Part shown: positions 15,617-54,588 of the stretch, piece by piece
How positions within the stretch are numbered: position 1 is the stretch's first letter
How the letters are laid out: each line of letters starts with the position of its first letter
Assembly: GCA_963711155.1 (NCBI GenBank)
Contig: CAVQDB010000004.1
Location: 336,486-400,485 of the forward strand
Origin: an uncultured Armatimonadetes bacterium
GTDB taxonomy: Bacteria; Armatimonadota; UBA5829
Reading direction: 5' to 3'
Length of the DNA stretch: 64,000 nt
Notes under the pieces: generated by a model
Told to the model about the DNA's origin: nothing
Seen by the model: the letters and a program-made list of their open reading frames with translations, nothing else
Database searches by the model: none
Made by a program: the position numbers and the translations under genes

Positions 15617-18600
15617 AGTTCTTGACCTTCTGCTCCCGCATATCTTTGTAGACCGACCGAGCAATCTGCCGGCCATCGAGCTTCGTGGTCACGCTCACCT
15701 CGATTGGCCGCTCGGAGAGTCCATCGAGCTTCGCCAGTATCGCTTCAAGAAGCGGTCGCAGATCGTCGGAACGAGCGGCGATGCCAGAAGCCTGCTCGGA
15801 CGCAAGAGACCCGCGCGTGACTGCCAAGGAGCCTTGATCTGTCAGCTGCTCTGCCGGCTGGTTGCGCGGCGGCGATGCTGGGCACAGCGCCTGCGACAAC
15901 CGGCGTGAGCGCGAGCGTGGCCGCCAGAGCGCTCGCCGGCAGTCCGACGTTCAGCAGGCTTCTCGCTGCTCCCAGGCTGCCGTGAAGCGCCCGGGCAGGC
16001 AGTTCCGACGCGCGAGAGATGCCCGCGCTGAACGCCTCAAGCATCGCCGCGCCGCTTCGGGTAAGCGTAGAAAGCGGACCCTCCTGCGCATCCGAGAATG
16101 GCAGAAGTCTTCTCAGCCGCGACAGCGCCGACCTTGCCGCCTCATACGGAGCGGCGACAGCCGAGCGGATACCGCTGGCGATGGTGGTCATGACAGATCG
16201 GCCGCTTTGGAATGCCGCCGACACCAGGCTCGACGAACTGGAGAGGATGTAGGAGAACGCGTTCGATGCCGCTCCGCGCACGGTAGACCATGCGGCAGAC
16301 GCTCCGCTTGCCAGCGCGCTGAACGGCGCTCGCAGCCAGCCCGCGGCATTGGATGCCATTGAGGTGATGCTCGACCAAGCCGATGCGGCCGATCCCCTGA
16401 CACGCGACCAGACGGACCCAGCGAAGCTGCCTATCTGTGAGAATGCTCCCGAGACAGTGGAAACGAGGCCCGACCCAAGGGCACGCAGTTCGTCCCAGAC
16501 CCAGCTTGCCGCGTTAAGCATGCTTCTGAACACCGCGCTCAGGACCTGACCGGGGAGCGAGATGAGAGACTGCATTCCCTGGGCGAGAGTGCGCAGGATC
16601 GCCGCACCGGAAGCCGTGAGAGTTGAGAGCGGTCCCTCCTGGGCATCGGAGAATGGCAGCAGCCTTCGAAGCCAACCCAGCGCTCGCTTCAGCACCTCGA
16701 ACGGATATGTCACCGCCGACCAGATTCCCTGGCCGAGCGTTATGAGTATTCGCTTGCCCGCCTCGGCGAAGTTGATCTGCCCGGAGATGAGCGAGCGGAT
16801 CGTGCCGAAGACGCTGAGTGATGGTGCTGACGACCGGCAAGCTCGAGAGATGCGGCCAGGAGCGAGTTGCCGGCCGACCTGAAGAAGCCACCAACGCCGG
16901 AGAACGCGTTCCGGAGCCAGTTCCACGTCGCGGATGCGACATCCCGAACCCACAGGAACGGAGTGGACAGGAAACCGAAGATTGCGCCGCCTATTGCCTT
17001 CAGCCCATCGACCACTGAGATGTCGCCGGTGATCATCCGCCAGACTGTGTACGCGACGCGGCCTACAGTAAGCAGCGCTTGGACGATCATGCGCAGCGGA
17101 AGCGAGAAGCGATAGACGTATGGAGCGGCGGCAACCAGCGCCGTGACGATGGTCTTCCCGAACCACACGACAGCCTGGACGACTGCCGCCACAATCCGGA
17201 TCACCCAGGAGAGCGGGTAGACGATGAACTTGATGATGTAGGCTGCGACCTGCGCGATGATGCCGAGGATCGTGCCGAGAGTCTGGCCGAAGCTCTTGAA
17301 CGAGGATGCATCCACGGCGGTAGTCGCCAACCCGAAAGCCGCGAAGACTGAGCCGAGCGCCTTACCCAGTTCGCCGAACGCTCCCATCAGCGCACGCACC
17401 GCTGGTTCCAGGATCGCCCGGATCTTGCCGAAGACAGAAGAGAACGCCTCCCACAGCCCTGACAGAAACTGTCGCACCCGGTAGTAGACCTGGAACACAG
17501 TTGTGACGAACTTGAGCAAGCCCGCTGCCTGCAGCTTCTGGGCGAGTTCCGCCGACATCTGTCCCGTTCCGCCCGAGAGCGACCCGATGAGCGCTCGGAC
17601 TCCCTGGAAGACAAGGCTTATACGATTCCACACGCCGAGGACGACATCCCGGATTCCGGCGAAGTTTGTCTCCCAGGCTTTCTTCAGCGCGATCACCGCG
17701 ATTACAACCGCCGCGATGACAGCAACCACCGGCCAGAAAGAGGCCGACACTGCCGATCCCACGCCGGCAAGCATCGGTCCCAGCGCCGCGATTCCGGCCT
17801 TGACTGCCGGCAGCACGATGCCGACCGTCCCCAAACCTGCGGTCACACTGCCCACCACGACCAGCGCCGCGCCGAGGGCCGCACACAGAGTCAGCACGAC
17901 CCGAGTCACACCCGGCGTCGATCTCGCCATGTCCTGTAGGTGCAGAATGAACCTGCGACACGCCCTGAAAGAGCGGGATCACCACAGGCAGCAGCGTACG
18001 CCCGAGGATTTCGGCCAGGTTGGCAAGCTGCTGCTTCACAAGCCCATACTGCGAGCCGATGTCCAGGTTCATTGCCTGGGCCATCTTCTCGCGTGACGAC
18101 GGTTCCAGACTTCATCGCCTGCTCGACGGACTTGATATTGCCCTCGAGCTGGTCCATCCCCATCGACATCTGAAGCAGGAACCGCACTGCCTCGTCCGAG
18201 CCGAATGCTTTCTTGAGCTGGAGTTGAGCCTCGGCGTTCGAGAGGTCGGGAAAGCCGCGCTTGAGTTCTTGCAGGATCGGGATGATGCCCTTGAGCCGTC
18301 CCTGGGTGTCGGTGAACGAGAGTCCCAGTTCCTGACCGGCCTTGGCAACCTGCATCATGAATGCCTTGTATAGCGTGCCTGCTTCCGAGCCCGGCATTGT
18401 TGTCTGAAGCTGACCGAGGATCGCGATCTGCTCTTCAAGAGGCACGTTGGATGCGGCGGCGATTGCGCCGATGTTCTTGATGGCCTCGGCCATCTGCGGA
18501 CCGGTGGTCTTGAACTGGGCGACGGTCTGAGCGAGCGCGCCTGAGAACATCTTCGCCCAGTCGATGTCGGACATGTCCTTGGCGAGCGGCTTGAAGATGC

Positions 18601-19086
18601 CGTATCCCGTGGTGAATGTTTCCACCATCTCCTGCGTGGTGGCTTTCGTGGCCTTGGCCGTAAGCGCCGCCATTGCCGCGAACGTGCCGACCGCCTGATC
18701 CGAGAGGCTGGCAAGAGCGGACTTCACATCGTAGGCAGCGGATATGAACTCGGCTTTGTTGGTGCCGGCCCACTGGTTGGTGAACGACTCGGCGGCGTCC
18801 TCCATTGCCCGGAAGTCCTTGACGCCAACTGATGCCAGTTCGCCCAGAGCCTTCTGCGTGGCGGCAGTAGACGCGACAAGACCGGCAGGAATCGCCAGAA
18901 GAGCAAGGCCTGCGCCGGTCATCATCGTGCCTTTCTCGATGAGACCGAGGTTGCGGGTCATGTTGTCACTGGCGGCTTCGACCGACGCATCCAGAGTCTG
19001 CATCGATGACTGGATACGCGTGGCGTTCTGAGTGAACGCGTCCTTGAGGCTGAAACGATTATGCCGAGGCCGAGGTCACTCATCAT
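15603..19086 (-). CDS. Tail tape measure protein; at least 5 apparent frameshifts
   Basis: The N-terminal third (...FTNQWAGTNKAEFISAAYDVKSAL...IAILGQLQTTMPGSEAGTLYKAFMMQ...LKKAFGSDEAVRFLL) is a canonical TMP core. It is followed by a long Ala/Gly/Ser-rich TM-like and helical region. An internal duplication, LRRLLPFSDAQEGPLSTLT(A/R)SGAA, occurs at about 16037-16130 and 16591-16685. The gene sits directly after the chaperone gene (ATGA overlap at 19083-19086). Confidence 0.9.
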
Positions 19087-27380: not shown

Positions 27381-27975
27381 CCTCCTGAAGATGTCTGGGT
27401 TGCCTGCTGCGAGGCGACCTGGGTTATCCGTGCGTTCTCGTCGGCGCCTTTGCGGTCCAGAAGACCAAGCCCGGTGAACGTGACGCCGTGCAGGATCTCG
27501 AACACCGGCTTGCCCTGGAACTCGCCGCCCTTGTACTTGCGGAGATGGGTGCAGTAGTCGTTCTTGGAGGCGACGGTCTTGCCGCAGATGGAGCACTCGC
27601 CCATCTCGTAGTCGCACTCCATCGAGACCTGGCTGATGATGCCGCGCTTCATGAGCTTGTAGGCAAGAGCCGCCGCCGGCGCTTCAGCCACATAGAGCTC
27701 GCCCACGCACTCGACGCGCCCGCCGGTCTCGTCCTCGATGAACTCGGAGTTGATGATCCCGCCGACGATATCCGTCAGGTCCTGCGAGTGCTTGAGGTCG
27801 ATCTTCTTGTTGATCGCCGTGGTGTAGCGAGCCGCCAGCTCGTCGGCGGTGAAGTGGTCGCCGTTCTTGTTCGTGCCCGCGCGGCACATTATGAAGCTGA
27901 ACTGCGGCTCGCCCGCATTCGGGTTCAGATCGAGAGCGGAAGCGGAAAGCCCGTCGCCCTCGGCTATAGCTCACC
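27380..27975 (-). CDS. Putative prohead (capsid maturation) protease; start unresolved
   Basis: ...ALDLNPNAGEPQFSFIMCRAGTNKNGDHFTADELAARYTTAINKKIDLKHSQDLTDIVGGI...QVSMECDYEMGECSICGKTVASKNDYCTHLRKYKGGEF.... The NKNGD.F...EL...D..H pattern and the position before the scaffold suggest an XkdF-like prohead protease. Confidence 0.45.
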
Positions 27976-29164
27976 TCGACCGGGATGGACGTGTGGCAGT
28001 TGGCCGGCAGCGCAGCCGCAGCGGCCTTGGGCGCACCCTTGCCATTCGAGGCGACGAAGAGCAATTCGCGGCCGTGCTTGCCCTCGCTCTCCTTGCCGAG
28101 GACAATGCCATACTCGACATCCATCCCCCGGACGCGCACGTTGCCGAAGCGCTGCGAGAAGATGTCGCGGATCTCGTTTCGGTCGGGAATGCCTTGTCGC
28201 GGTAGGAGAGAATGACGGTCCCGTACTTGCCGCGGGCCTCCGACGCCAGGTTCTCTATGAGCGAGCGGATGCTGTCGCGGTCGTAGTGGGTCCGCGACTT
28301 GTAGCTGCGGCGGTTGTCGCTGAGCAGCTCCTTGTCCGCCCAGCGGTTCATCAAGCCCCTCGACGAAGTGCAGCGAATACTCGTAGTCGTTGTTCGAGAA
28401 CTGGGTGATGTAGGGCGGGTCGAGATACAGCACATCCCCGCCGAACTTGCGCACCGCCTCGACCGCGTCGCCGTGGAACGCCTTGCACTCCTGGCCGTTG
28501 TCGAAGACCAGCTTGTTGAGCTGGCTCGCATATCGCTTGAAGCTCTCGACCATGCTGGAGACTGGGAATGCTGGTGAGCTGGCTTTCCTTGAATCCGCCG
28601 GCCTCTGTCTCAGTCGGCGTCAGCTCCATGTCGGCCTTGAGGTTGAGTCTTCGAGCGATGGAACTGGCCGTAGAGGCACTTGGCCTTCACGGTGTTGCCG
28701 AGCGCCGCGAGCGCCAGGTCTTTCTTGTAGCCGGGCAGCTTCTGGATATTCGCCCACACCTGATCGAGCCACGCGAGCACCTTCTTGGTGTAGTAGTAGC
28801 CGTGGAAGTTGTCGACGATGAACGTGCCGGCGTCGGCGTTGGGCGCGAGGATCTTCTCGATATCCTCGTCGGTCAGAGTCTCGTGGGAGTTCTCGACCAC
28901 GGCCCGGGCGATGTGATAGGGATAGAGCAGCAGGTCGTTCGCGATGACTTTCAGGCCCTTGCGCTTGAAGTGGTAGGCGACGTTCGCGCCACCGGAGAAC
29001 GCATCGACGATGGTCTTCGCCTCTTTCGGCACCTGCCGCTCGATCCAGCCGAGCATCATGTATTTGTTGCCCATGAAGCCGGTGACGCGGACCGGGTCCT
29101 CGCCGGCCTGGCAGCTCAGAAGCTCCAGTTCGTCGGCAAGAGGCGCATCCGCCAGGGCCTGCAT
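27976..29164 (-). CDS. DNA N6-adenine methyltransferase, D12/Dam-like class, copy B; about 3 apparent frameshifts
   Basis: ATG 29164 follows GAGGAGAAC. MQALADAP...VTGFMGNKYMMLGWIERQVPKEAKTIVDAFSGGANVAYHFKRKGLKVIANDLL... then ...DVLYLDPPYITQFSNNDYEYSLHFVEGL... and ...GTVILSYRDK...ELLFVASNG. The motif order is YxGxK, DxFxGxxxV, DPPY. Confidence 0.7.
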
Positions 29165-30357
29165 GTTCTCCTCGATGCGCAGGGTCACTTCCGGTGAATG
29201 GCCGTCCTCATCTGCCTGAGCAGACTTGCCGCCCTTGGTGCAGACGAACAGCCGCTCTATGGCAACCGAGTTCTCGCAATGCTTCGCGGAAATGCGATAC
29301 TGGTGCTCCTGCGACTGCATCCGGCTGGACATGCCGTTTGCCGAGATGATGTCTTTCATCTCCCCCTCGTTCGGGTAGGCGTGGTCGCGGTAGGAGATGA
29401 GCCAGTTCGGGATGTGCTTCGCGTTGGCGAGGAACGTGCCGAAGAACTCGCCGGCGTTCGCCTTGGTGACCGTCTTGTGGTCGGTCTCGTAGTGGTGGGT
29501 CTTGGAGTCCGCCACGATCTTCAGCCCGTCCCAGTAGGTCATCAGGCCTTCGACGAAGTGATAGGCCTTCTCGTAGTTGGTCGTCGAGAACTCGGTCGCG
29601 TAGGGCGGGTCGAAGTAGGCGAGGTCCACCTTGGCATCGGCCAGCAGCGTCGTTCATGTCCTTGCAGGTCGCCTTGCACTCCTTGCCGTTGTCGAAGACG
29701 AGCGCGTTGATGCGCGCGACGTTGTTCGCGAACCGCTCCTTGAACTCGTCGGGGGTGTCCTGCCGCTTGCCGTAATCGGTCGAAGAGGAGAAGTGGCCGA
29801 AGCCGCCTTTGCCGGACATGCACGTCTTGCCGAGGGCGAAGAGCGCGATGTCCTTCTTGAACCCGGAGAGCGCGTCGACGTTCGCGCGGATGGTGTCGAT
29901 GACCTTGTGGACGCCGTCGGCGAAGAAGAGGCCCTTGAAGTTGTCCCGGACGAACGTGCCGGCCTTGGGGTTGTCGGCAAGCAGCGCGTCGAGTTCCTCC
30001 TGGGCTGATGCGAACGCTGCCGTTCTCGATGATGGCCCGGGCGGCGTGGTGGGAGTAGTGCAGCCGGTCGTTGGCGACGACGCGCAGGCCCTTGGTCTTG
30101 TACATATACGCGACGACCGCCGAGCCGCAGAACGCGTCAAGCACGCTCGCGACTCCCTCCGGCGTGTGCTTCCAGATCCAGTCAACGAGCTTCTGCTTCG
30201 AGCCTATGTAGTTGGTGATGTATTTCGGACGCTCATCCGGCGGCAGTTCCTCGGTGACAAGCTCCGCGCCCTGGGCGATAAGGTCTTCCAGGTAGCAGGA
30301 AGCATCCGTCTCCAGCAGGAACGCCAGCCGATCAAGGTCCGTGGCGAAAAGCTCCAT
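29165..30357 (-). CDS. DNA N6-adenine methyltransferase, D12/Dam-like class, copy A; about 2 apparent frameshifts; no in-frame stop before copy B
   Basis: MELFATDLDRLAFLLE...PKYITNYIGSKQKLVDWIWKHTPEGVASVLDAFCGSAVVAYMYKTKGLRVVANDRL... then ...FDNGKECKA... and DLAYFDPPYATEFSTTNYEKAYHFVEGL...WLISYRDHAYP...IERLFVCTKGG. Confidence 0.7.
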
Positions 30358-30434: not shown

Positions 30435-30576
30435 AGGGCACCATTGAGTGCGTGAGGGCCGACCATGGAGTCCTAGCCTCATCCATTCCGCATGTCCATG
30501 TCACGCGTGTGTTTGACAGAAGGCAGTTGCTGGCTGAAATTCTCTACCATTCAGCCTTGGATAACAGGGGGAGTAT

Positions 30577-31209
30577 GTGAGCGTTGATATCGCATCAAGA
30601 ATAGTGCAGCTTATCAAGCTTCCTTTCAGGCATCTGTGGATCATCGCTATCGCGTCCGGTGTGCTCCTGTTCTCGCCAGCGAGGATGCTACACAGATTGA
30701 GAATGGCTGAGTTCGTCGGCGCATATGGCACTTGGGTCGCTGTGGTGTTTCTGCTGTCTGCAGTATCGATTCTCGTGAACTCATTTCACTGGGCTTGGCA
30801 AGCCCGCGCCCGTAGTTCTAAGCGGGCTAGTTTCGAGTTCGGACGGCTGCCGGTCCCTCTCAGGAGGTTGTCGCATCAGGAGAAGGGTGTCCTGCGGGAG
30901 TTCTTCATACAGGGGCAAAATACTTTGCGGCTACCGATTGATAATCCGGCCGTCACGGGCCTTCTGCGAAACGGCATTTTGGTTCAGCTCGATAGCCTCT
31001 GTGAGGGTTCCCTCGCGGGGCTCCTGGCACCGGTGTCTATTGCTGATGGGCTCTCAGACTTATTGGTGGCCAGCCACATTGATCTTCCTTGTGAGCCCGT
31101 CTCCGATGCCGACAGGGACTATGTGCTGAACAATCGTCCGGACTTTCTGCCAGAGATCGAGCATCATAACGAGATCTTCCACACGTCGTGGCGCCGGTCG
31201 ACGTTCTAG
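30577..31209 (+). CDS. SieB-like superinfection-exclusion membrane protein (by resemblance)
   Basis: GTG start after GGGGGAG. There are two N-terminal TM helices (HLWIIAIASGVLLF, WVAVVFLLSAVSILV), then LSHQEKGVLREFFIQGQNTLRLPIDNPAVTGLLRNGILV, which matches my recollection of the SieB family (PF14163) core. Upstream, TTGACA (30513-30518) plus N16 plus TGAAAT forms a promoter-like pair. The region is low in GC. Confidence 0.45.
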   Translation: MSVDIASRIVQLIKLPFRHLWIIAIASGVLLFSPARMLHRLRMAEFVGAYGTWVAVVFLLSAVSILVNSFHWAWQARARSSKRASFEFGRLPVPLRRLSHQEKGVLREFFIQGQNTLRLPIDNPAVTGLLRNGILVQLDSLCEGSLAGLLAPVSIADGLSDLLVASHIDLPCEPVSDADRDYVLNNRPDFLPEIEHHNEIFHTSWRRSTF

Positions 31210-31294
31210 CTGATTCGATTAGAAGCCGCTTAGTCGTGGCAAACCACGTGAGCGGATCTGGTTACGCCCTATTTGCTAAGATGAGAGATCTGAC

Positions 31295-32451
31295 ATGCTT
31301 TTCTGTGCAAGCGAACGCAGAATGATAGTGTTACGTGTGCCAAATCCCAGAGCATACCGACGGGGTCGGCTGGCTCTCTTTGTCACACTGACCCTTCTGA
31401 CAGTCTTGATGTGTGTGCCTAATGTTGAGGCAAGAAATCTGGGTTCGCACGTGGTAACCGACGTTATTGATGGAATGACACTATGCGTTCAGGCCTCGGC
31501 CAAGTCAGACTCATTGGTGTGAGGTCCCCTGCTCAGAGCGACGATATCAGAATGCCAGAGTCTGTGCTCAACAGAGCAGGATCGGTCTTGCAGGTACTGG
31601 CAGTGAAAAGAACTGTAATCGTTGAGACTGACATTCGAGAGAGAGACAACGAAGGGTGTCTACTGGCATACGTATGGCTCGATGATGGTTCATTGCTCAA
31701 TGCTGTCGTGATTAGATCAGGTTATGCGATTGCGATCCCGTGTCCACCCAACATCAAGTATGGATCCAAGCTGCAGAGAATGCAGATTGATGCCATAGAC
31801 CACGGGAGGGGAATATGGGAAGAACCACCGGCTTTGCTGTCCAATCGACCGTTCTGGCCCGTCTTGCCTAAGTCGTGGATGGTGACTATTCCGCTGCTTG
31901 CCGTATCACTGTTGTTGCTGATCAGGACCTATGAACTGATTGGCACGTTGTTGTGGCTTGCATGCAAGAGCAAGACATGCAAAGTGGACTATGACGGGTA
32001 CATCAGAGATTTGCGACTCCAGATGCAGATAGCAAACCAGCCTGTCACTACAAGTGGCGTGCCTACATTTCGTGAGGGGCTGAGAGAAGTTCAGAGGTGG
32101 GCAGGTCGCAGGATTCAGGAACTTGATGCGCGTTACCGTCGACCTGAATCTCGAGTAATGAGATTTGTGAAGAGGACCTGTGGGCAAGCTGGCGCCAATA
32201 TGGCGTATAGGTGGCTTAACTTGATGCTTCTCACAGCAATGCTTGCAGCACTTGTCTCGGACGATTCCGTGATGACGGCGTCGGTGGTGTTCCTGGCTAT
32301 GTTTGCATTTGCTACAGGCGGTCTAGTTCAGATCGCCCATCTGATCGCTTCCCGAATGGTACAGATTCGACCACGCTCGCGACAAAGCCAATGCAGCCAA
32401 TATGTCAGTGCAGATGGGGCTTCCTCCCGAGATGGGAGAAGCGACCGCTAG
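31295..32451 (+). CDS. Exported SNase-fold (thermonuclease-like) domain with degenerate catalytic residues, followed by a multi-TM region; 1 apparent frameshift near 31490
   Basis: Signal-peptide-like N-terminus (RRGRLALFVTLTLLTVLMCVPNVEA). SNase core: HVVTDVIDGMTLCVQ / GLGQVRLIGVRSPAQ...NEGCLLAYVWLDDGSLLNAVVIRSGYAIA...GRGIWE. Compared with staphylococcal nuclease, IDGDT becomes IDGMT, VDTPE becomes VRSPA, and YGRGLAY becomes EGCLLAY. Hydrophobic helices then follow (WMVTIPLLAVSLLLL, LNLMLLTAMLAAL, VVFLAMFAFATGGL). Confidence 0.6.
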
Positions 32452-32773
32452 ACGAAAGGATGTGGTTAGTGAGTTCGTTACGGTGTTCCTCGTCACGTTT
32501 GGAGTCTTGGTTCTAGGCTATGGAGGCATATACGCCGGCCTTAGCAAGGTAGGCATAGGTGGAAGTGCATTTCACGGACTGGCAATCGACCAGAGTCCGT
32601 TTGCTCAGTTGTTGTACTTCAGTATCGTCACGATTGCCACTCTGGGATACGGTGACATCGCACCGTCAAGCTTCTTGGCTAGGCTAGCAGTGTCCTCAGA
32701 AGTCCTGTGCAGCTTCGCGCTAATAGTCTTGCTTGTCGCAGTAGTCTCGTTGACCTCACAAACGGACGAATAG
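32402..32773 (+). CDS. Miniature 2-TM potassium channel pore protein (may be the frameshifted C-terminus of the previous ORF)
   Basis: TM1 FVTVFLVTFGVLVLGYGGIY, pore helix plus selectivity filter LLYFSIVTIATLGYGDIAP (TxGYGD), TM2 LAVSSEVLCSFALIVLLVAVVSL. Confidence 0.75.
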   Translation: MSVQMGLPPEMGEATARRKDVVSEFVTVFLVTFGVLVLGYGGIYAGLSKVGIGGSAFHGLAIDQSPFAQLLYFSIVTIATLGYGDIAPSSFLARLAVSSEVLCSFALIVLLVAVVSLTSQTDE

Positions 32774-32858
32774 CGCATAGTGAATAGCTGTTGGGCACTC
32801 TGTGTTCTGGTCGATTCCAGAGTAGTCTCCGGCGAACTCCTCCCAGTTGTGCCTTGGC

Positions 32859-33209
32859 TCAAGACTGCATTGATATGAGAAGTGTCGCGATAACTTGATA
32901 TATGCATTCCTTTGCCGTCGCGAACTCCTCCGTCTCCACAATCTCTCCTCGCATCCCACGATACGGCGACATCGTCGCCTGGTGATACTCCAGGAAATCC
33001 TCCGGCAGCGATTTGATGTCGTTCTCCACCAGCCGGTTGATGACCCAGTCCGCGTCTTCCTGGAACTCCTCATTGCCAGGCAGGTATTCCATCACGATAT
33101 CCAGCCCCGGCCCAGGACCTTGCACCCAGACGCCGATGGGCTCGTAGTGCGGGTTCGTGTCCCGGTCACGAAGCGCATACTCGATCATGTATCGCAGCTT
33201 CATTGCCAC
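32859..33209 (-). CDS. Hypothetical protein (candidate immunity/accessory to the MuF polyvalent protein)
   Basis: Intact 116-aa acidic ORF (MAMKLRYMIEYALRDRDTNPHYEPIGVWVQGPGPGLDIVMEYLPGNEEFQED...). It overlaps the end of the upstream gene. Confidence 0.45.
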   Translation of the reverse strand: MAMKLRYMIEYALRDRDTNPHYEPIGVWVQGPGPGLDIVMEYLPGNEEFQEDADWVINRLVENDIKSLPEDFLEYHQATMSPYRGMRGEIVETEEFATAKECIYQVIATLLISMQS

Positions 33210-33677
33210 GCCTCCGCGATGCTCGCGTGCTCCTCAAGAAGCTGCGCGTCGATCTGCTCGAACATCGCCTTGTTCTCGGCTTTGTATGCCTGCCAGTCTT
33301 TCCAGTCGGCGCAGAGCGCGAGGTCCTGAGTCGGGAACAGCAGTTCCATGTGGTAGCGCCGGCCGAGGTCGTCTGTGAGGTCGAGAAGATATGTATCGTC
33401 CTGGCTCCAATCGACGACCTTGATAGTGTGGGCGTACTGCCAGCCGTTATTGTAGCCCGCCGACTTGAAGAGGAGCCAGAAATCAGTCTTGGTGACATTG
33501 CCCGCGGCATCGAAGTGCGGCGCGACGCGCGTGACAGTGTAGCTATCGATCAGCCCGAACTCAAGCGGTTCGTCAGTGCCTTCCCGCATCGTCCATCCAG
33601 GAGCCGTCCTCGTTGAATGGATCGAAGAGCGCCTGCAGCCTCGACTTTTCGCTCGCAATGAAATCCGCTATGCTCAT
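33200..33677 (-). CDS. Hypothetical protein (candidate immunity/accessory); 1 apparent frameshift near 33590
   Basis: MSIADFIASEKSRLQALFDPFNEDGSWMD / ...REGTDEPLEFGLIDSYTVTRVAPHFDAAGNVTKTDFWLLFKSAGYNNGWQYAHTIKVVDWSQDDTYLLDL.... Its ATG forms an ATGA overlap with the stop of the giant upstream gene. Confidence 0.45.
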
Positions 33678-36600
33678 CTGTCTATCACTATCTCCTCGAT
33701 TCTGCGCCCATCCGGCAATACTGATATGCCGTGTTTCCTGAACACCGCAAGGACCTTCTCTCGCTCGGTCTGACCCCGGACGACGATGCACTCCAGGTTG
33801 TCCAGCAGCGTGACGGAGTACTTGAGGATGGTCTCATTGCTGGAGTTGCGGGAGAATGCTCTTCCACGTCCCGGGTCGGCCCCACGGTTTTGAGAGACGA
33901 AGTCGTCCTTCACTTTGCCGTAGCAGTCGTGGTTATAGCTTATCGCGTCCATCCGTCGCAGAAGCTGCTTCTTGAAGTAGAGCCCGGGTTCACCCGAGGA
34001 TGCCGTGGGTAGCTTCTTGATGCGGGTGAAGACGTAGGTCGCCCCGCCGCTGTTCATGTCCTCCGCAGGGGACATGCCACCCGGCGTTATCCCAGCTCGA
34101 AGCTTCTCGACCGTGCTTATCATCGCTCCGTTGTCTCCAAGCGCCGTGTCAAGGAACGAGCTTACGCTTTCGCCGTTCGTGAGATGGTGATGCAGGCCGT
34201 AGCCTTTCATCTCGCGCTCCAGATCGGCGTCCGAGATGTCGAAGCGGTATTGCTGCCGATAGCCTCCCGCGATCTTGCTGTCCTTGAACCCCCGCTGATA
34301 CTCGCCTATTGGATCATAGCCAGGCAGTCTTCGTGATGTCAGTAACACCCAGCCGCTTCTCCCAGTACCGATCGCATCGCTTGAACCTGCTCGGCCTTGG
34401 AGGCGTTCCTGGCGTCGAGGTCGGAGATCATCTTCGTGTACTCCGGCTCACGGTCGGTCTTGGCGATATAGGCCGCCTTGCCAAGATACATCAGTTCAGA
34501 GTCCTCGGCAGTCGAAACTGTGGCATTCACTCCAAGCTCTGTCGATATGCTCAAGCGCCTTGTCGAGGGTCTTCGGGTCTGGACGATCTGGCAGAACAAG
34601 CTCGAACTCGCCCTGCTGCGCATAATGGTTCTTGTCCGACCACGGTCTATACACGGCGGTGATGCCGTCGCCAAAGTCGATTTCATACTGCTCACCGTCG
34701 CGCATCGACCGGCCCTTGAACAGCGCGGTGTTGTCCGCACCCTCTTTCTCGACCGCGAGTTCGCCCTTGCTGATCGTCCGCTTGGTCATCAACACCTTGG
34801 ACTTGCGGACGGTGAAGTCCAGTTCCTTAGCTTTGCTCTTGGGCGACGGGTATCTCTTCAGATACGCTTCGAAGACGCCGGATATCCGTTGGCGCTCCTG
34901 TGCCGCCTGCTGAACCTTTTCGATCCATCCGATGTAGTTCGCTGCCATCTCTCGCACGTCAGGATCATCGGACTTCGCGAGCTTGCGCAGCGCCTCCAGG
35001 TGCTTCGCAGCCTTGTCGATGTGTGGCCTGGTTGTAGCCTCCATCCTGAGCATGGTGGTTGATCGTCTTCACCGCCGCGAGGATATCGCCAGAGAAGCTG
35101 TCTTCCGACAAGGGCTGGCCGACCTTGGGGACGGTGGTCTGGCGGTCGGCTTTCCTGAGCTGCGGCAGGATCTTCGGCTCAGCCTCCGGCCGGATCTTCA
35201 TCTTGATCACCGTGCGCTGCTGCCCGTTGATGGTCTCGGTGAAGATGAGCGCATTCTGGTCCTCGATGTCGCTCTCATCGATTGGCAGAGTCTTTCCCTG
35301 CCAGCCCAGCCGCCGCACGTCTTCCAGCAGATCTTCCTCGGCCTTACCGATTCTGCCTTTGACCGGCGCCTCGACCACGTCCTCGAACCTGAACCCCGGC
35401 TTGCCTAGGACATCGGCGTAGAACCCCTCGAAGTCCGTGCGCAGGCTGTGCTTGCGCGCAAGCGCCAGTTCGTAGAAACGCCTTTCTCTTTGCCTCGCTG
35501 CTGCCGAACCTGCCCTCCGACATACGGCCGTATCAGCGCGAGGTAGTCATCGTCGGATATCCGCTCGACCTCGCGGATGTAGCGCAGCGTGACGGACGGA
35601 TCGACCGCCACCTTGCCCTGCTTCGCGGCGCGAAAGAGCGTGTTGTAGAACGGCTCACTCTCGCCGCAGACGCCGTTGGGATGGTAATCGATGGAGAGCT
35701 TGTCCTCTCCCAGGAACTTGAAGAGCTGGCCCTTGTCGATGCCGTAGACCTTGCCGTCCTTGGCGCGCAGGAACTGCTTGGAGTGCCCATCGTGGTTGGA
35801 GATGAGCCAGTCAATCACGTGCTCGCGCTGAACCTGCGCGATCTCGTCGCGCTGAGAGTTCGGTGACGTCGATAGCTGAGAAGTCGTGTTCCTTGGCGAG
35901 ACCGGTCTTCGCCACTTCTGGATCGAGCCCGTGCGGCCGTTGAGGCGGATCGTTCTGACTTCGATGGCATCCGGATCGATCAGCCTGCCAATCTTGTAGG
36001 CGGCCTCCTCGCCATGCGCGATGAACTCATCCGACGCTTTGCCGCGGCTTGAAGAGCCACTTGTCGCCGTTCTCGTCCAGCCAGAACTCCTTCTCGTGCG
36101 CGCCGCCGACATTGGCTTTGCCGTCATACTTGAACTTCTCAGGCTTGCCATGCTCTGCCCAGGCCGCATCGACGGCGTCGAACTCCGATCCCTTCTTCGC
36201 GAATGTGTTCGGGGACGCGGATGTGACTGGCTGTGAGAGTGGCTGTGGCTCTGTCGGCTTGGCTGTTGGGCTGGGCAGCTTTGCCCGGCGTCGCGAGATG
36301 CTTCTCGGCCCACTTGGCGTGCTTCGCCTCGATACTCGCCTGCGCCGCCGACACCTTCGTCGGATCAGTCTCCGTGAACAGGGTAGTCAGTTCGTCTTTC
36401 GATGCCCACTGCCAGTGCTTGACCTTGGTCTGCTTCGCAAGGTCCTTGAGCTCGCCCGACTTCATCGCCGCGACCTGCTGCTGGAACGTGTGCTTCTTGA
36501 GCGCGATCTCCTTGGCGTGTTCCTGGAGCACCGACGCCGGCAGCCCGGAGTCCTTTGCGAGTTCCGCTTCGGCAGCCTTTACTGAATCGAGGAACGATGA

Positions 36601-38260
36601 GTACTGCGTCGGGAGAGGACGGCATTACTATCTGCGATGTGGCGTCCTTGAGAGCTTGCTCGGCTTTCTTCAGCGCCTCTTGCTTCGCCGCATCGAGGGC
36701 CTGCTGCTTGGCTTGGTCAGCCATCTGCTGGCCGGCCGCTTTCTCCAGAGCCTTGGCGAGCTGCTCCTTGTTCTTGAGCGGAGGAATGCCGTACTTCTGC
36801 TTCGCGGCGATCAGGGTCTTGCCGGAGTAGTTGTAATGGTCTATGTGCGGCTCAAGACCGTCCAGCATCTCGATGACTTCAGACTTGGTGAGGTTCAGTG
36901 ACACGCCGTGCTGCTTGGCCATGTCCTTGAGCTGGACCATAGTCAAGCTGGAGAGGTCGGTCTGAGGGGCGGCGTTCTTCGCGGCCTCTTCCAGTGCCTT
37001 GGCCTGCTTGATCACCGCCTGCTTCTCGGCAAGGAGTAGGCCAGTTCGTCCTTGCTTCGCAGCGCTGCGATGTTGTACTGCTTGATCTTTGCCTGGAGCG
37101 CTTTGCCAGCCAGATCGCCGTGGTGGATTCCAGGTTCTGCCAGGTCGAGGAGCTTGATGAAGTCGGACTTCGTGCGGGCGACGGCTATGCCGTTCTGCTT
37201 CGCGAGTGTTTGAAGCTGCTTGACGGTGAGAGTGCCGAGGTCCGCGATCTGCCCGGACTCGAATGCGCCTTTGAGCTTCTTCTCTTCTTCGGCTTTCTGT
37301 TGTGCCTGTAGTTCAGTCGCCTGGGGAGGAAGGATACAGGCGCTCTGGCCAGGCGCAGCGGTCGCGCCGAGATCACCGCCACAAATGACCAGCGGCCATG
37401 CGACCACGCTGGTGCACCGGCAGTTGGGATGCGCGGGCTGGCTGGGGAAGCGGTCGGTGTCGAAGACCTTGCCATCGAAGCCGCCGCAGACCGGGCACAT
37501 CCGCTCGTCTTCCATCGCCACCCATTCGAGTTTCTGCACGCCGACCTGCTGGTGGAACTTGATGCGGCCCTGGTTGTGAGCGCGCAGGACCTCGGTGCGG
37601 GCGATCATCTCCATCCGGTACTGCGCCTTGGTGAACACCTTGCCGCCAGCGTTGCGGAACGACTCCTTGTCCTCGATCACCGTCCCGAGGTCGCGCACGA
37701 TGTCCTCGACACCCTTGCCCGTGGCGATACCAGACAGGATCGTGCGCTTGATGCCGGCCTCAAGCTCACGATGCACGTCGCCCGCGAGCACCAGGTTGTA
37801 GTTGGCCATGAAGTCGAGCGCGTCGGTGTCGATGAGCGTGAACGCCGATGGTCGTGAGCTTGTCGATCCCGTCCGGCGTGAGATCACGGTAGAACGGCAT
37901 CTGCGCAGTCGCGAACTCCTCGATCCCTCGATAGACACCCTTGCGGAAAGCCGCCCGCGAACTGCTGCGGAACATCAGGGTCTGGTCCTTGCGCAGTGTC
38001 CTCATCGCGTCCCGGATCTCGGCGTCGAGCTTCTCCAGGCCCTTCAGCGCCGCGAGCTTGTTGTCGGGAAGCGAACCGAGGCTCTTGTAGTTAAGCAGCG
38101 CCTTGTGAACCTGTTCCTGCGCGGACTTGAGGGACTGCGTGAGCTGATGCGCGACCTGCTCCGAATAGAGGTCGCGGGCAAGCAGGCTCTTCAGTGTGGC
38201 TTCGCGGATTGCCTGAGCCTGAGAGGTCGTGTCGGCGATGGCGCACATCGGTGCCTGCAT
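33674..38260 (-). CDS. Giant MuF-domain polyvalent virion protein (~1500 aa): MuF/SPP1-gp7 head-morphogenesis domain, HeH/SAP-like repeats, kinase-like domain and unknown C-terminal domains; at least 10 apparent frameshifts
   Basis: At least 9 consecutive track ORFs (37766..38260, 37012..37938, 36365..37015, 36139..36531, 35405..36313, 34965..35378, 34496..35053, 34339..34740, 33674..34348) each become sensible where the previous one degenerates. I found no convincing internal start or stop signal between them. The MuF signature is ...YRMEMIARTEVLRAHNQGRIKF...WVAMEDERMCPVCGGFDGKVF...PAHPNCRC. Confidence 0.65.
35430..36200 (-). other. Atypical kinase-like domain (PI3/4-kinase / HipA-like catalytic-loop pattern) inside the polyvalent protein
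   Basis: My own translation of the minus strand at 36041-36120 gives KANVGGAHEKEFWLDENGDKWLFKP. Downstream lie HVIDWLISNHDGHSKQFLRAKDGKVYGIDKGQLFKF (D-x-H-x-K-Q ... IDKG). This is a motif-level resemblance only. Confidence 0.35.
36370..37270 (-). repeat. Array of HeH/SAP/Rho-N-like helix-extension-helix repeats (coding)
   Basis: LTVKQLQTLAKQNGIAVARTKSDFIKLLD; LAGKALQAKIKQYNIAALRSKDELAYLL; LTMVQLKDMAKQHGVSLNLTKSEVIEMLDGL; GKTLIAAKQKYGIPPLKNKEQLAKAL; GELKDLAKQTKVKHWQWASKDELTTLF. Confidence 0.6.
37330..38260 (-). other. MuF / SPP1 gp7 head-morphogenesis domain of the polyvalent protein
   Basis: HPNCRC motif, ARTE...A.N.G motif, and position immediately after the portal gene. Confidence 0.8.
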
Positions 38261-38271
38261 TGCTTGCGCCC

Positions 38272-39856
38272 TCAGACTCTCTTGTGTTCAAAGAAGCGGC
38301 AGGCGGGGGAGTCGAACGTGGTCTCGGCCTGCGTGACGCCGCACTTGTTCTGCTCGTCACCGAAGAAGCCGCACGAGTCGCACATTTCGATCGCGTAGTG
38401 CAGCGCCGCCTGTGCTTGAGCCGGCTTGTTCTTTGCCGGATCGAGGCCGAGCATCTCCTGCGCGGCTTCGATGCCCATGATCCCGGCCACGACCATATCG
38501 ACAATCGGCTTGACCTGCTTCTCGTCCAGCAGGTCCACGGACTTGCCCTCGCTGCGCCGATGCGCTTCCTCCACATCCGGGTCGAGGTCCATCTTGAGCT
38601 GCAGGCTTGAGCGGCTTATGAGCTTGCGGTCGTATAGCTCGATCAGGAGCTTCTTGAAGTCCACCGCGTCCGTGGGATCGAGGTCGTTGAAGACGAACTG
38701 CACGCTCTTGTCCTGGTGCCCGGACATCTCCAGCCAGTCGGCGAATATCCAGTCGAGGATCGTCCGTCGCCGCGTGCTTTATCTCCCGGATCATGATGAG
38801 CATCTTCTGCATACTCACCGACGCCGTTGCGAAGTTTGGGCCGTCGCCGGCGACGAGTGAGCGCGAAAGACCCAGCGCGACGACGATGTCTTCCTTGACC
38901 TCCCGCACTTTCTCCTCGACGTTGAGGACCTGCCCCTCGGTGCCGTGGGTCTCGACCGTCACGTAGAACGGCACGACCAGGCCGCTCTTGAGGTCCATCT
39001 TGTTGACCATGTCGCGGACCTGTTCGAGCATCTTCTGGTCGGGCATCACCATCTTCTGCCCGTATGCCCCGCCGACTTTGAGGAGCCGGAACGGTGTCGC
39101 CCAGCGCTTCGCGATGGCCTTCTCCGCGCGGCGATAGTCCCGCAGAAGCTCGATGGACTCGAACGCCGGCAGGACCAGGGAGTTACCGCGAGGAGAGAAC
39201 GATGGGGCATCCCACTTGAGGTGCAGAGTCTGCTCGACCGGCAGCTTCAGACCGTCGCCTGTGGCCGGGCTGTCTTCGGGGAATTGCTGCACCTCGACGA
39301 GCTGGCCTTGGGCATACTTCACCTTGATCGAGACCGGGTTCACGCACGTGACTTCCTCGATGTCCTTGCCGTCCTTGGTGTATCGTTTGAACCCGACCGC
39401 GTCGCCCTTGACGAGCAGTTGGAGGATCATGTCCTTCACGAACTCGGAAACATCGAGCCGGTCGGCAAGATCGTTCGCCTCCTCCTTCACGGTGTCATCG
39501 TCGCTGGTGATCTTGATCTCGTCGCCCACCGCGAACGTGCGCCAGGAGTTGATGCAGTTCTTGACCAGCGGCTCCTCGACATAGTACTCCCAGGCTTTCT
39601 TCGCCCGGTCTTCCCAGGTCTTCGGGATCGCGCACTCGTCGGCATGGAGCTTCGCAAAGGTCGACGAGTCCAGCATAGCCGCAGTAGCCAGCGGCGCGAC
39701 GATGATGCCCTGCGCTTCGTTCGCGGCGGTGTCGACAACGCCAGCCGATCTGTTTGCAGTTCTCCTTGGACGGGGCTTTCGACTCTCGCTCTCCACGCTG
39801 ACCTCGATCCTTACGGGGTCGGAGCGCGCACGCGGCGATGTGGCCGCGAGATGCAC
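38272..39856 (-). CDS. Portal protein; 1 apparent frameshift near 38760; start uncertain (alternative ATG at 39676)
   Basis: ...WEDRAKKAWEYYVEEPLVKNCINSWRTFAVGDEIKI...LHLKWDAPSFSPRGNSLVLPAFESIELLRDYRRAEKAIAKRWATPFRLLKVGG...FATASVSMQKMLIMIREIKHAAT / ILDWIFADWLEMSGHQDKSVQFVFNDLD.... The gene order is terL, portal, MuF. The C-terminus carries a Cys cluster, CDSCGFFGDEQNKCGV...PACRFF. Confidence 0.8.
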
Positions 39857-44387: not shown

Positions 44388-44883
44388 TCAGAAATCGGTT
44401 CGCTTGAGCCAAGGTTGAGGCACGTTCGGGTTATAGAGGCGGTTGGGCTTGCCGTGCTCGTGCAGGTAGACGATCTCGATGTATGCACGCTGTGACCTCT
44501 CCAACCTGCCGAGCGCCTGAAAGGAAGCAGACCAGGCCATACTCCTGTCCATAGGGAAACGGATATCGCCCTCGGTTCTGATAGAGACCCGCTTCAGTCC
44601 ATCCCAACTGCATCGCCTCCTCGCGAATCGCATCCACTTGCGCGACAGCTTCCGGTGCGACGGACAGCGTAGAGGGCAAACAGCCATCTCTTGGAAACAG
44701 ATGCTCAGTCGACGGCGTCGGAGCGCTCGCCTCCTGAAGCTCCTGCATGATCGCCGCCTTGTTCTCGAGCGCCAAGGTGCGGATGTCGTCGGTGATGGCC
44801 GACCTCGGCTCAAGCCAGAGGATGTTCCCCGACCGGACGGATGCCCGAATGCCGTGCTTGGCGAGCGTCTCCAGGTATGGCAT
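44388..44883 (-). CDS. Hypothetical protein downstream of the primase (1 apparent frameshift near 44510)
   Basis: MPYLETLAKHGIRASVRSGNILWLEPRSAITDDIRTLALENKAAIMQEL... then ...QEYGLVCFL / QALGRLERSQRAYIEIVYLHEHGKPNRLYNPNVPQPWLKRTDF. Confidence 0.4.
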
Positions 44884-51525: not shown

Positions 51526-51994
51526 ATGGCCGACTCTGTTGTGAAGCAGGTTGCGAGCCTGCCCAAACTCAAATACGAAGAGCTCAAGGCTATGTACGTG
51601 GCGCTCTACGGCAAGGAGCCTCCTGCCTACAATCGGGACCTGATCATCAAGCGTCTGGCCTATCGCCTGCAGGAGATTGCCTATGGCGGTCTGCCTGAGC
51701 GGGTGTTGCGCCGGCTTGATGAAGTGCTGGTCGAGAATGGCTATGACGAGAACGCGATGCCAATGGGCGTGTCCAAAGCGCAAGCGCAAAGTGATGAAAG
51801 ACCACCCGTGATCGGCACGGTGCTCGTGCGCGAGTGGCGCGGCGAGACGATATGAGGTCACCACCCTCCGAGATGGCTTTGAGTTTCAGGGGCGCAGGTA
51901 TCGCAGCCTCTCGGCTATTGCCGCCGCGATCACGGGTGCGCACCAGAGCGGTGTCGCGTTCTTCGGTCTGAAGCCTGCGAGGAGGAAGCAGTGA
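51526..51994 (+). CDS. DUF2924-family protein (recombinase-associated); 1 apparent frameshift near 51850
   Basis: RBS AAGGAGG. MADSVVKQVASLPKLKYEELKAMYVALYGKEPPAYNRDLIIKRLAYRLQEIAYGGLP...LVREWRGET / YEVTTLRDGFEFQGRRYRSLSAIAAAITGAHQSGVAFFGLKPARRKQ. A GTGA overlap joins it to the recombinase start. Confidence 0.7.
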
Positions 51995-53352
51995 TAACAC
52001 GAGATGCGCCGGCAGTCCGCACTCTTCGTTGCGCGGTCTACACTCGGAAGAGCACCGAAAAGGGCCTGGAGCAGGACTTCAACTCACTCGACGCCCAGCG
52101 CGAGGCGTGTGAGGCATACATCGCGAGCCAGAAGCACGAGGGCTGGGTCTGCCTGCGCGAGCAATACGACGATGGCGGCTTCAGCGGCGGCAACATGGAC
52201 AGGCCGGCACTGCAGAGGCTGATCGCCGATATCGAGAAGGGGAGGGTGGATGCGGTCATAGTCTACAAGATCGACCGCATCTCCCGCTCGCTCTTGGATT
52301 TCGCCAAGCTGATGGAGCTTTTCGAGCAGCACAAGGTGGCCTTCACGTCCATCACGCAGCAGTTCTCCACAACCACGGCTATGGGCAGGCTCACCCTCAA
52401 CATCCTCCTGAGCTTCGCCGAGTTCGAGCGCGCCATCGCCTCCGAGCGTGTCCGCGACAAGATCGCCGGAGCCAAGAAGCGCGGCAAGTACCTGGGCGGC
52501 ACACCGGCTTACGGCTATGACGTCGACTACAACGACAAGCGGTTGGTCGTCAATCCGAAAGAGGCCGACACCATCCGCTGGCTGTTCAGGCGATACCTCG
52601 CGACCAACTCGCTTGTCGGCATCGCCAAGGAACTCAATGCCAAGGGCATCACGACCAAGTCCTGGACGACAAAGAGAGGCAACTACCGCCAGGGCAGCCT
52701 GTGGACCGCTCAGCATGTGTACCGGGCACTCAACAACAAGATATTCCTGGGACTCGTCGAGCATGAGGGTGAGGTATACCCTGGCGAACAGGAAGCCATC
52801 ATCGACCAGAAGCTCTGGGACGATGTGCAGAGGGTTCTGGCATCGGGCCTGGGCAGGCAGCGACGCCAGCCGACACACGAGACCAACGCGCTGCTGCACA
52901 AGCTGATCCGCTGCGGTCACTGCGGCAAGGCGATGACCAACAGCTACACGAGGAAGAACGGCAAGGTCTATCGCTACTATGTCTGCGGCACCGCCGCCAA
53001 GCTCGGCTATGACGCCTGCCCGATCAGGACAGTCCCGGCCGGCGATATCGAGAACGCAGTGCTGGATCACCTGCGCGCGATTCTCCGCTCACCCGAACTC
53101 GTCGCCCAGACGTTCCGCGCGATGCAGACTCAAGCCGCCAGCGATCCCGACCTGCCGATAGCCGGCCTCACTGAACAAGACGTCGCCGAGTCACTGAACA
53201 CTCTGGACCCGGTATGGAGCGAGCTATATCCCGCCGAGCAATACCGGATCATGCGCGCCTTGGTCGACCACGTGATCGTCACCGAAGGCGGCATCGACAT
53301 CACGCTACGCGCCGACGGCCTCTACTCCGTCGCGTGCGAACTCAGAGAATAG
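51991..53352 (+). CDS. Large serine recombinase (resolvase/invertase N-domain + recombinase + zinc-ribbon domains)
   Basis: RCAVYTRKSTEKGLEQDFNSLDAQREACEAYI...YDDGGFSGGNMDRPALQRLIADIEKGRVDAVIVYKIDRISRSL...MGRLTLNILLSFAEFERAIASERVRDKI...YGYD...LIRCGHCGKAMTNSY...YYVCG. The ORF is intact. Confidence 0.9.
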   Translation: MITRDAPAVRTLRCAVYTRKSTEKGLEQDFNSLDAQREACEAYIASQKHEGWVCLREQYDDGGFSGGNMDRPALQRLIADIEKGRVDAVIVYKIDRISRSLLDFAKLMELFEQHKVAFTSITQQFSTTTAMGRLTLNILLSFAEFERAIASERVRDKIAGAKKRGKYLGGTPAYGYDVDYNDKRLVVNPKEADTIRWLFRRYLATNSLVGIAKELNAKGITTKSWTTKRGNYRQGSLWTAQHVYRALNNKIFLGLVEHEGEVYPGEQEAIIDQKLWDDVQRVLASGLGRQRRQPTHETNALLHKLIRCGHCGKAMTNSYTRKNGKVYRYYVCGTAAKLGYDACPIRTVPAGDIENAVLDHLRAILRSPELVAQTFRAMQTQAASDPDLPIAGLTEQDVAESLNTLDPVWSELYPAEQYRIMRALVDHVIVTEGGIDITLRADGLYSVACELRE

Positions 53353-53369
53353 GAGAGCAACGAACACGC

Positions 53370-53803: not shown

Positions 53804-53848
53804 GAAGCAGTGCAACCTTGCGCCACTGAGGCTGCACTGCTCTAGAGA

Positions 53849-54585: not shown

Positions 54586-54588
54586 CTC

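Follow-up and report, generated by a model that had tools for sequence, protein, structure and literature searches.

The SieB proteins of P22 and lambda are expressed in the lysogen and serve an abortive or exclusion function, with self-immunity in P22 achieved through an internal in-frame product, Esc. Staphylococcal-nuclease (SNase) domains that have lost their activity are represented by those of SND1 (Tudor-SN), which bind rather than cleave. Here we describe a locus with a sieB-family gene and, behind it, a second gene that, once two breaks in its reading frame are repaired, would encode an exported, inactive SNase domain and a K+ channel in a single polypeptide (the SNase-channel gene). 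It lies in a stretch of 64,000 nucleotides (nt) from an uncultured Armatimonadetes bacterium (contig CAVQDB010000004.1 of assembly GCA_963711155.1, forward-strand positions 336,486 to 400,485), which we call the window and number from its first letter. The reading that we favour, with a probability of roughly 0.55 for the whole of it, is an accessory ('moron') spot in an integrated myovirus-like prophage that holds two unrelated cargo genes: a stand-alone sieB and, on a later insertion, one gene of ~494 amino acids (aa) composed of a signal peptide, the inactive SNase domain, a linker and a K+ channel with five transmembrane (TM) segments. At the level of sequence comparison, the anatomy of this gene, its insertion and the inactivation of its nuclease site are established. 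An earlier interpretation made from the letters of the DNA alone (the original prediction) was largely correct but mis-parsed the locus: the reading frame is broken twice, and the channel is full-length rather than miniature.

Three described systems come closest to the SNase-channel gene. HalA of the Hailong system (Tan et al. 2025, summarised in PMC13434031 and PMC13586616) is a DNA-gated ion-channel effector against phages, with a tetrameric K-channel-like pore that depolarises the membrane; its ligand, oligo-dA, is bound by a crown domain in the cytoplasm, and it depends on the nucleotidyltransferase HalB. The resemblance would be a K-channel-like pore whose state depends on nucleic-acid binding, a property described for HalA and conjectured for the window protein; the difference is that the putative binding domain here has an SNase fold and is predicted on the outer face, and the sequence relationship is that of the generic pore only. 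The fused protein gives no pentapeptide or nucleotidyltransferase match in Pfam, no PADLOC model fits its channel, and its neighbours are sieB and phage structural genes, with no nucleotidyltransferase partner among them. The chlorovirus channel Kcv is the nearest precedent for a K+ channel in exclusion, since depolarisation and loss of K+ keep a second virus from infecting (PMC7019647). Like the window pore, Kcv is a K+ channel pore encoded by a virus, but it is a protein of 82-124 aa located in the virion membrane of eukaryotic viruses, whereas the window pore is the end of a ~300-aa bacterial channel with five TM segments, carried on a prophage. Finally, SNIPE is a membrane-anchored nuclease that destroys phage DNA at injection (PMC13434031), and it shares with the window protein a nuclease-family domain tethered to the membrane where phage DNA crosses the envelope. 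The SNIPE nuclease, however, is active, cytoplasmic and C-terminal, whereas the window domain is inactive, N-terminal, predicted to be extracytoplasmic and borne on a channel rather than on a simple anchor. None of the three is homologous to the window protein beyond the generic pore or fold. The original prediction had named no described precedent for such a composition; it is true that no SNase-channel fusion was found among 1.84e9 representative proteins, but HalA and Kcv are precedents (PMC13434031, PMC7019647).

Reconstruction of the SNase-channel gene

The plus strand of the island carries four open reading frames (ORFs) rather than three (Table 1). What had been taken for a single ORF from 31295 to 32451 is in fact a 75-aa and a 322-aa ORF in different frames, giving two breaks instead of one. 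Three-frame translation locates the first break closely; a frameshift-aware alignment of eight homologues against the DNA confines the second to between 32347 and 32428, where frame 1 does not open until ~32345 and the 322-aa frame (frame 0) meets a stop at 32451. We joined the three pieces in silico into a 494-aa sequence and compared it by phmmer with 1.84e9 representative proteins. The SNase homologues cover the query from residues ~28-54 to ~177-185 in a single stretch over the first break (residue 65/66), as do the NucI model of NCBIfam (53-177) and the SNc model of PADLOC (52-179), and the pattern DGxT-h-x-V-xxx-G-x-h-RL matches the spacing of the homologues only with the frames joined at ~31485-31490. 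Similarly, 13 channel homologues of 260-340 aa cover residues ~193-491 in a single stretch over the second break (~370) and so align across the junction of the 322-aa and 123-aa ORFs, in agreement with the earlier suggestion that the last ORF is the frameshifted C-terminus of the preceding one. The alignment with the channel homologues starts right where the SNase domain ends, and the C-terminal part of the SNase domain and the N-terminal half of the channel lie in one unbroken ORF, that of 322 aa. As homologues span both breaks in single stretches, we conclude that the SNase-channel region was one gene of ~494 aa. Programmed frameshifting at the first break was considered and rejected: the sequence there (...ACA CTA TGC GTT CAG...) holds no slippery heptamer of the form X XXY YYZ, and there are a dozen similar breaks nearby.

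The origin of the breaks is best judged from the neighbouring genes. A MuF-associated ORF of more than 914 aa that is intact in a related contig (L016) maps to 33.7-36.4 kb of the window (minus strand, within 33590-36430) with 75% aa identity, 12 frameshifts and no in-frame stops, and the adjoining 152/160-aa gene has one further frameshift with respect to its relative. Thirteen frameshifts with zero nonsense codons in a conserved protein argue for indel errors in the consensus rather than evolutionary decay, and such assembly errors are the most likely cause of the frame breaks in the SNase-channel gene too; the organism itself probably has this gene in intact form. Further genes split over frames are those of the tape measure, the portal, the primase-helicase and the methyltransferases, the primase-helicase having its D5_N domain in one ORF and DUF5906/Pox_D5 in another. 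The related contigs bear names of the type contig_NNNN and come from metagenome-assembled genome (MAG) projects, which is consistent with long-read metagenome assembly. The quality of the assembly probably touches every ORF call in the window.

Several observations weigh against the reading that we favour. With ~1 indel per 300 bp in this region, the 25 codons that link the SNase domain and the channel could contain a stop masked by an unnoticed indel, and the fusion would then be an artefact; moreover, the indel density is uneven, as the terminase (701 aa), the sheath (615 aa), hsdM and hsdR are long and unbroken. The candidate ATG of the channel is overlapped by a frame-1 TGA (ATGGTGA), and a frame-2 TAA lies slightly upstream. 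The gene is broken twice in the deposited sequence, the channel itself being divided between the 322-aa and 123-aa ORFs. A fusion of SNase and channel would outscore single-domain matches, yet none appeared among the top matches from the 1.84e9 representatives; a pseudo-nuclease ectodomain on a K+ channel is a unique architecture, yet it is a singleton read from one indel-ridden contig. No PADLOC model matches the SieB-like part or the channel part, the -10 hexamer upstream of sieB is imperfect (see below), and the channel-family members found elsewhere have chromosomal-looking neighbourhoods (lipopolysaccharide genes, toxin-antitoxin pairs, a TMEM175 gene and an AAA_23 ATPase). The notion of a DNA-sensing, depolarising exclusion is speculative, being drawn from domain content. 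A word-indexed search of 5.8e9 clusters for close relatives of the fused protein returned only the window's own ORFs, and all three window proteins are singletons.

Some of these observations could also be accounted for by two adjacent genes that an unseen indel has falsely joined, one for an exported SNase-like pseudo-nuclease and the other for an ordinary K+ channel with five TM segments that starts at the ATG at ~31871. Channel homologues do start within a few residues of this methionine (of 'MVTIP'), SNase homologues end ~12 residues earlier, and the other-frame stops (TAA at ~31860 and the TGA of ATGGTGA at ~31875) fall exactly at the expected end of an upstream gene, all this in a region of very high indel density and with no fused homologue in the large protein search. 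Such an arrangement would nevertheless require a third error, one that is not observed: in the sequence as it stands, a single open frame leads without a stop from the final conserved residues of the SNase domain to the earliest ones of the channel. Nor does any of the nine channel-family loci have an SNase gene upstream that could be a precursor. On balance, we regard two genes as unlikely and retain the single ~494-aa gene as the better description.

Table 1. Features of the window discussed in the text (positions are those of the window).
Feature	Position	Strand	Description
Promoter-like site for sieB	30513-30540	+	TTGACA-N16-TGAAAT, read directly
sieB-family gene (sieB-like ORF)	30577-31209	+	210 aa, intact ORF; two N-terminal TM segments and a cytoplasmic domain; GTG start, Shine-Dalgarno (SD) sequence GGGGGAG upstream
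Insertion carrying the SNase-channel gene	31216-32903		~1.69 kb, guanine-plus-cytosine (GC) content 0.51; not in related prophages
SNase-channel piece 1	31295-31489	+	Sec-type signal peptide (hydrophobic 26-44, ...VEA/R) and first SNase strands VTDVIDGMTLCV; within ORF 31295-31522
ORF, frame 1	31295-31522	+	75 aa; signal peptide and first SNase strands
ORF, frame 0	31483-32451	+	322 aa; SNase core and N-terminal half of channel
Frame break 1	31485-31490	+	Codon phase -1, as though one base were lost; from three-frame translation
SNase-channel piece 2	31489-32365	+	Inactive SNase core, linker of ~12 residues, TM0, ~100-aa cytoplasmic helical region, TMa/TMb hairpin
Interval holding frame break 2	32347-32430	+	Phase +1, in cytoplasmic loop ahead of M1
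SNase-channel piece 3	32366-32773	+	M1, pore helix, filter TIATLGYGD, M2; contains ORF 32402-32773
ORF, frame 1	32402-32773	+	123 aa; channel pore
Tape measure gene	15745-19003		Split over frames
D12-class methyltransferase genes	27684-30357	-	Split over frames
MuF-domain head protein genes	33674-37938	-	
Portal gene	38091-39856		Split over frames
Primase-helicase gene	44883-47277		Split over frames
Integrase-side genes	51991-53352, 54589-55485, 57109-62290		Include serine recombinase, IrrE/Peptidase_M78 and type I restriction-modification genes

The inactive nuclease domain and the K+ channel

The SNase fold with replaced catalytic residues had originally been recognised by eye, and it is confirmed here by profile, model, structural search and alignment. 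Pfam PF00565 matches aa 7-113 of the 322-aa ORF (E=1.2e-10), together with a weak match to a nuclease of the PHROG collection, and the domain is 31-41% identical to secreted bacterial thermonucleases that carry signal peptides. The N-terminal piece has the corresponding positively charged n-region, hydrophobic core (residues 26-44) and VEA/R. The AlphaFold2 (AF2) model of the domain has a predicted local distance difference test (pLDDT) score of 85, and above 90 over residues 48-175; it was built on a domain alignment, a run on the whole fusion having scored the SNase part poorly owing to a poor mixed alignment. Foldseek relates this model to the Staphylococcus aureus nuclease (1stn and 4qb4, E~5e-9 to 1e-8, TM-score to target 0.77-0.84) and to human SND1 (4qmg) as well.

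With respect to the S. aureus enzyme, the window domain carries D21M, D40R, T41S, E43A, Y85E and R87C, whereas R35 and D83 are kept. Four of the five active-site residues are replaced, in contrast to the 15 nearest homologues, which without exception (15/15) keep the canonical DGDT, D[TA]PE and GR. These changes are concentrated on the catalytic columns: in a set of 16 SNases, 32 columns show at least 85% conservation; the window domain keeps 27 of them, and four of the five that have changed are D21, D40, E43 and R87 (hypergeometric p ~7e-4). We also considered a frame artefact as the source of the substitutions and rejected it, as the alternative frames at IDGMT, VRSPA and EGC do not encode DGDT, DTPE and YGR; at the first SNase motif frame 0 does read NDT, but a join there fits the spacing of the homologues worse. 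Judged by its alignment and its model, the domain is a pseudo-nuclease, and the selective loss of the active site with retention of the fold suggests a maintained binding module rather than a nuclease. It is expected, by analogy, to bind and not to cleave, like the SND1 domains that it also matches in fold. It is joined or adjacent to a channel, as is the case in no homologue.

The 123-aa ORF matches Pfam PF07885 (Ion_trans_2; E=4.7e-11, 42.9 bits against a cutoff of 22.5) and, weakly, a Kef-type K+ transporter of the PHROGs. The original prediction had seen in it a complete, miniature pore of two TM helices and a P-loop. The Ion_trans_2 assignment and the TLGYGD filter stand, but the ORF is only the C-terminal M1-P-M2 of a ~300-aa channel with five TM segments. 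This channel aligns end to end, from MVTIPLLAV (nt ~31871) onwards and with 24-30% identity, with the 13 members of a bacterial family of 260-340 aa that is apparently undescribed (P0006, P0015, P0021, P0027, P0029, P0052, P0063, P0075, P0090, P0106, P0109, P0125 and P0131; nine loci, L001-L003, L014, L015 and L041-L044). The window copy shares the motifs LLxLKLxE, FRWPxLML and RLxLG...FRR as well as the pore; around its filter, TIATLGYGD, every invariant column of the family (F, YFS, T, T, G, G, D) is kept along with most of the near-invariant ones. It differs in having L where all 13 members have V (TVG[YF]GD), in its prophage location and in the exported SNase domain that lies upstream in frame, the family being otherwise made up of stand-alone genes.

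In the AF2 model the channel half (residues 190-490) has pLDDT values of 75-97, and model and hydropathy agree on TM0 (195-225), TMa/TMb (308-321 and 327-358), M1 (389-421), a pore helix (437-451) and M2 (462-491), with M1, pore helix and M2 at 85-97. Foldseek matches the pore to KirBac, Kv and Slo channels at a probability of ~1 (for KirBac3.1 and a Kir chimera, 1.0, with a root-mean-square deviation of ~4 A over ~105-110 residues). The loop that follows TM0 (226-326) is net positive, with 18 K+R against 10 D+E, which implies that TM0 runs from outside to inside; the SNase domain would then be outside and M1-P-M2 in canonical orientation. An extracytoplasmic SNase domain, which the original prediction had put on the membrane's outer face, is thereby supported by hydropathy and charge bias together.

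The 123-aa ORF starts with an ATG, its M1-P-M2 is complete and its filter intact, and functional viral channels of 82-124 aa are described (PMC7354518; PMC7019647); one might accordingly imagine that the breaks are real and that this ORF is expressed alone as a Kcv-like minimal K+ channel. However, no SD sequence precedes its ATG, the 50 codons upstream in the other frame extend the family alignment, and 13 of 13 homologues possess the N-terminal module of ~190 aa, so that a minimal channel appears very unlikely. More generally, the whole SNase-channel locus could be a decayed pseudogene in a degrading prophage, with real frameshifts, a dead active site that is part of the decay and nothing functional except possibly sieB. 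This would suit the occurrence of two frame breaks within 1.5 kb, the many broken phage genes around it, the lack of a recognisable SD sequence before the ATG of piece 3 and the defective -10 hexamer. The flanking genes, with their 13 frameshifts, no nonsense codons and 75% aa identity, are nevertheless unlike the product of neutral decay; the SNase changes fall on catalytic columns while the fold-conserved ones are largely spared, the channel retains its invariant columns, and sieB and the 116-aa gene downstream are intact. We therefore hold a pseudogene to be improbable and an SNase-channel gene that is intact in the organism to be the better interpretation.

The ~190-aa N-terminal module of the channel family consists of TM0 (LLxLKLxE), cytoplasmic helices with WPxTR, the FRWPxLML hairpin and RLxLG..D..FRR, after which come M1-P-M2 and TVG[YF]GD; no Pfam, NCBIfam or PADLOC model covers it. 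A profile search for further members yielded P0106 alone, its results being dominated by generic K+ channels; IMG/VR gave only pore-only matches and no member of the family, and tblastn against the GenBank phages gave none. In one 4.6-kb contig (L003), an 822-aa AAA_23/SMC_N-type ATPase gene (751-3219) lies directly upstream of P0006 on the same strand with a gap of 200 nt, and the two could be a functional pair.

sieB and the 1.69-kb insertion

The assignment of the first gene to the SieB type, with two TM helices, is borne out by hydrophobic segments at residues 20-38 and 49-67 (Kyte-Doolittle maxima) and by Pfam PF14163, which matches at E=1.1e-22 over its positions 3-128 of 147. The score of 80.6 bits is well above the cutoff of 26; with the same profile the relative P0166 reaches 91 bits and another relative, P0172, 110 bits. 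The match to PHROG 6399, 'SieB superinfection exclusion', is weak (E=4e-4), and tblastn found no match to the protein in 50,697 GenBank phage records. The closest homologues, P0166 (81% aa identity) and P0167 (72%), come from five contigs, all short, whose gene order matches that of the window. Over its full length the protein aligns with 16 homologues, with LREFFIQxQNTLRLP and NRPDFxPEIExHxxxFH as common motifs. In this subfamily of ~205-210 aa, the conserved C-terminal motif NRPDFxPEIExHxxxFH reaches past the matched part of the Pfam model. The subfamily occurs in genomes and MAGs of Verrucomicrobiae, Bacteroidota (including Flavobacteriia), Desulfobacterota and Proteobacteria (Pseudomonas, Vibrio and Salinicola); one family member, P0168, is 337 aa long owing to 130 extra residues at its N-terminus. 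Like SieB of P22 and lambda, the window gene matches the profile, has N-terminal membrane segments, is borne by a prophage, runs opposite to the structural operons and has a promoter-like site of its own, albeit with an imperfect -10; it differs by its membership in the distinct subfamily with the extra C-terminal motif, by the weak PHROG match and by the absence of GenBank phage relatives. By analogy, sieB is presumed to work on its own, its product being expressed in the lysogen to exclude superinfecting phage or abort their infection.

The sigma70-like promoter proposed upstream of sieB holds up in part. The motif is present and its -35 is conserved: GTTTGACAGA is invariant in an alignment of three lineages (the window, L016 and L019) within intergenic DNA that has otherwise diverged. 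The -10 hexamer, TGAAAT, has no A at position 2 and fails a consensus scan. The same scan of L016 finds TTGACA-N17-TAGAAT (11/12 consensus matches) at an equal distance from sieB, and the -10 hexamers of L016 and L019, TAGAAT or TACAAT, align with the TGAAAT of the window. Because the -35 is conserved at fixed spacing in related prophage lineages, a putative promoter that belongs to sieB and is conserved across its relatives is supported by these comparisons.

The SNase-channel gene has a different history. In blastn comparisons of the five relatives (L016-L020) with the window, homology extends through the start of the methyltransferase gene and sieB, ends at 31212-31215 and restarts at 32904; the relatives have ~50 nt between sieB and the next gene (112 aa) and no SNase or channel gene in that place. 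The insertion also swaps out the last ~10 codons of this downstream gene, which has 116 aa in the window. Given the homology gap and the absence of the insert from the syntenic relatives, the SNase-channel gene lies on a prophage-specific insertion of ~1.69 kb, and by the same comparisons it is a separate acquisition, later than that of sieB. The alignment of the junctions reveals nothing obvious in the way of direct or inverted repeats of a mobile element at the edges. Just within the left edge, in the stretch that separates sieB from the SNase-channel gene, there is a hairpin with imperfect pairing (CGCTTAGTCGTGG-CAAA-CCACGTGAGCG, 31228-31262); it lacks a T-run and is therefore not called a terminator.

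Could the three predicted genes nonetheless be one dedicated defence system, a cassette in which SieB, a DNA sensor and a K+ channel act together, as originally proposed? They are neighbours that share a strand and a promoter-like site upstream, the search for terminators gave none that would separate them, and all of their products are membrane proteins. However, nowhere else in the data available do the genes occur together, an outcome that the original prediction had itself said would refute it. We assembled 75 sieB-family loci totalling 440 kb, of which 47 came from JGI metagenomes, 19 from GTDB genomes, 6 from protein look-ups and 3 from IMG/VR. Many of these loci are on short contigs; their fetched flanks were searched by tblastn, the queries being the window protein, seven members of the channel family and six SNases. 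An SNase or channel gene near sieB was found in 0 of the 75 loci, sieB being without it both in the five syntenic contigs and in the 70 more distant loci; conversely, an SNase or SieB gene was present at 0 of the 9 channel-family loci. (The view of the sieB subfamily comes from alignment A4 together with loci L022-L040 and L045-L094; the pattern used for the GTDB scan did not match the window's own sieB, which has EKGVLREFF.) In addition, the SNase-channel gene is on a separate insertion with a different GC content. A three-gene system is on this evidence extremely improbable and, as far as the sequences compared can tell, sieB and the SNase-channel gene are a juxtaposition and not a conserved module.

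Possible function and prophage setting

If the restored gene is intact in the organism, its chimeric product might tetramerise and conduct K+, while the outer SNase domain might bind an external ligand, with nucleic acid or a nucleotide as the obvious guess. The outer domain could then tether or gate the channel and so shift the membrane potential or K+ content of the lysogen, a change that might in turn affect a superinfecting phage. The most specific version, in which the periplasm-facing dead SNase of a single polypeptide senses nucleic acid or nucleotides (for example phage DNA during injection) and gates the channel, with efflux and depolarisation blocking entry or aborting infection, would make the protein a one-protein, outside-sensing counterpart of the DNA-gated Hailong channel; proposed by analogy, it seems to us rather a long shot. 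Should the repaired ORF prove real, no earlier example would exist of a K+ channel that bears a nuclease-derived domain outside the cytoplasm, nor of one carried as prophage cargo beside an exclusion gene. It would further offer a simple candidate through which ligand-gated depolarisation of the membrane could be tested in competition between phages, and an entry point to a widespread, unannotated family of K+ channels with five TM segments.

The prophage surrounding these genes is of the myovirus type. It encodes baseplate J, Tail_P2_I, sheath, tape measure, portal, MuF and large terminase proteins, together with a primase-helicase of the D5 type and a large serine integrase; after the prophage genes comes a type I restriction-modification system. 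The GC profile and the ORF map confirm the low-GC, plus-strand island among minus-strand genes that had been noted at the outset: GC is 0.49-0.55 across 30.4-32.9 kb against 0.60-0.64 in both flanks (by feature, 0.555 for sieB and 0.516 for the SNase-channel region, with 0.62 and 0.60 for the flanks). To its left lie minus-strand fragments of D12-class adenine methyltransferase genes; to its right, also on the minus strand, come the 116-aa gene, a 152-aa gene and MuF-related genes. Megablast found no match to 28-36 kb of the window among the GenBank phages, there is no credible terminator in 30.2-33.3 kb, and no tRNA gene, which might have been a clue to the att site, occurs in the 64-kb window.

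One end of the prophage is marked by the large serine recombinase (within the 51991-62290 region), which an IrrE/Peptidase_M78 gene adjoins. The restriction-modification system beside this integrase has a 693-aa hsdM and an 886-aa hsdR-like ORF, the HSDR_N domain of which begins only at residue ~300. The methyltransferase region seemingly contains two or three tandem units of D12-class N6-adenine DNA methyltransferases, each broken between frames; the N-terminal motif of MethyltransfD12 is present twice, and a third fragment lies further left. The MuF-domain head protein is very large, at least three separate ORFs matching PHROG 6577 (a profile of 1066 positions with no known function), and it has a long conserved C-terminal extension past the MuF domain.

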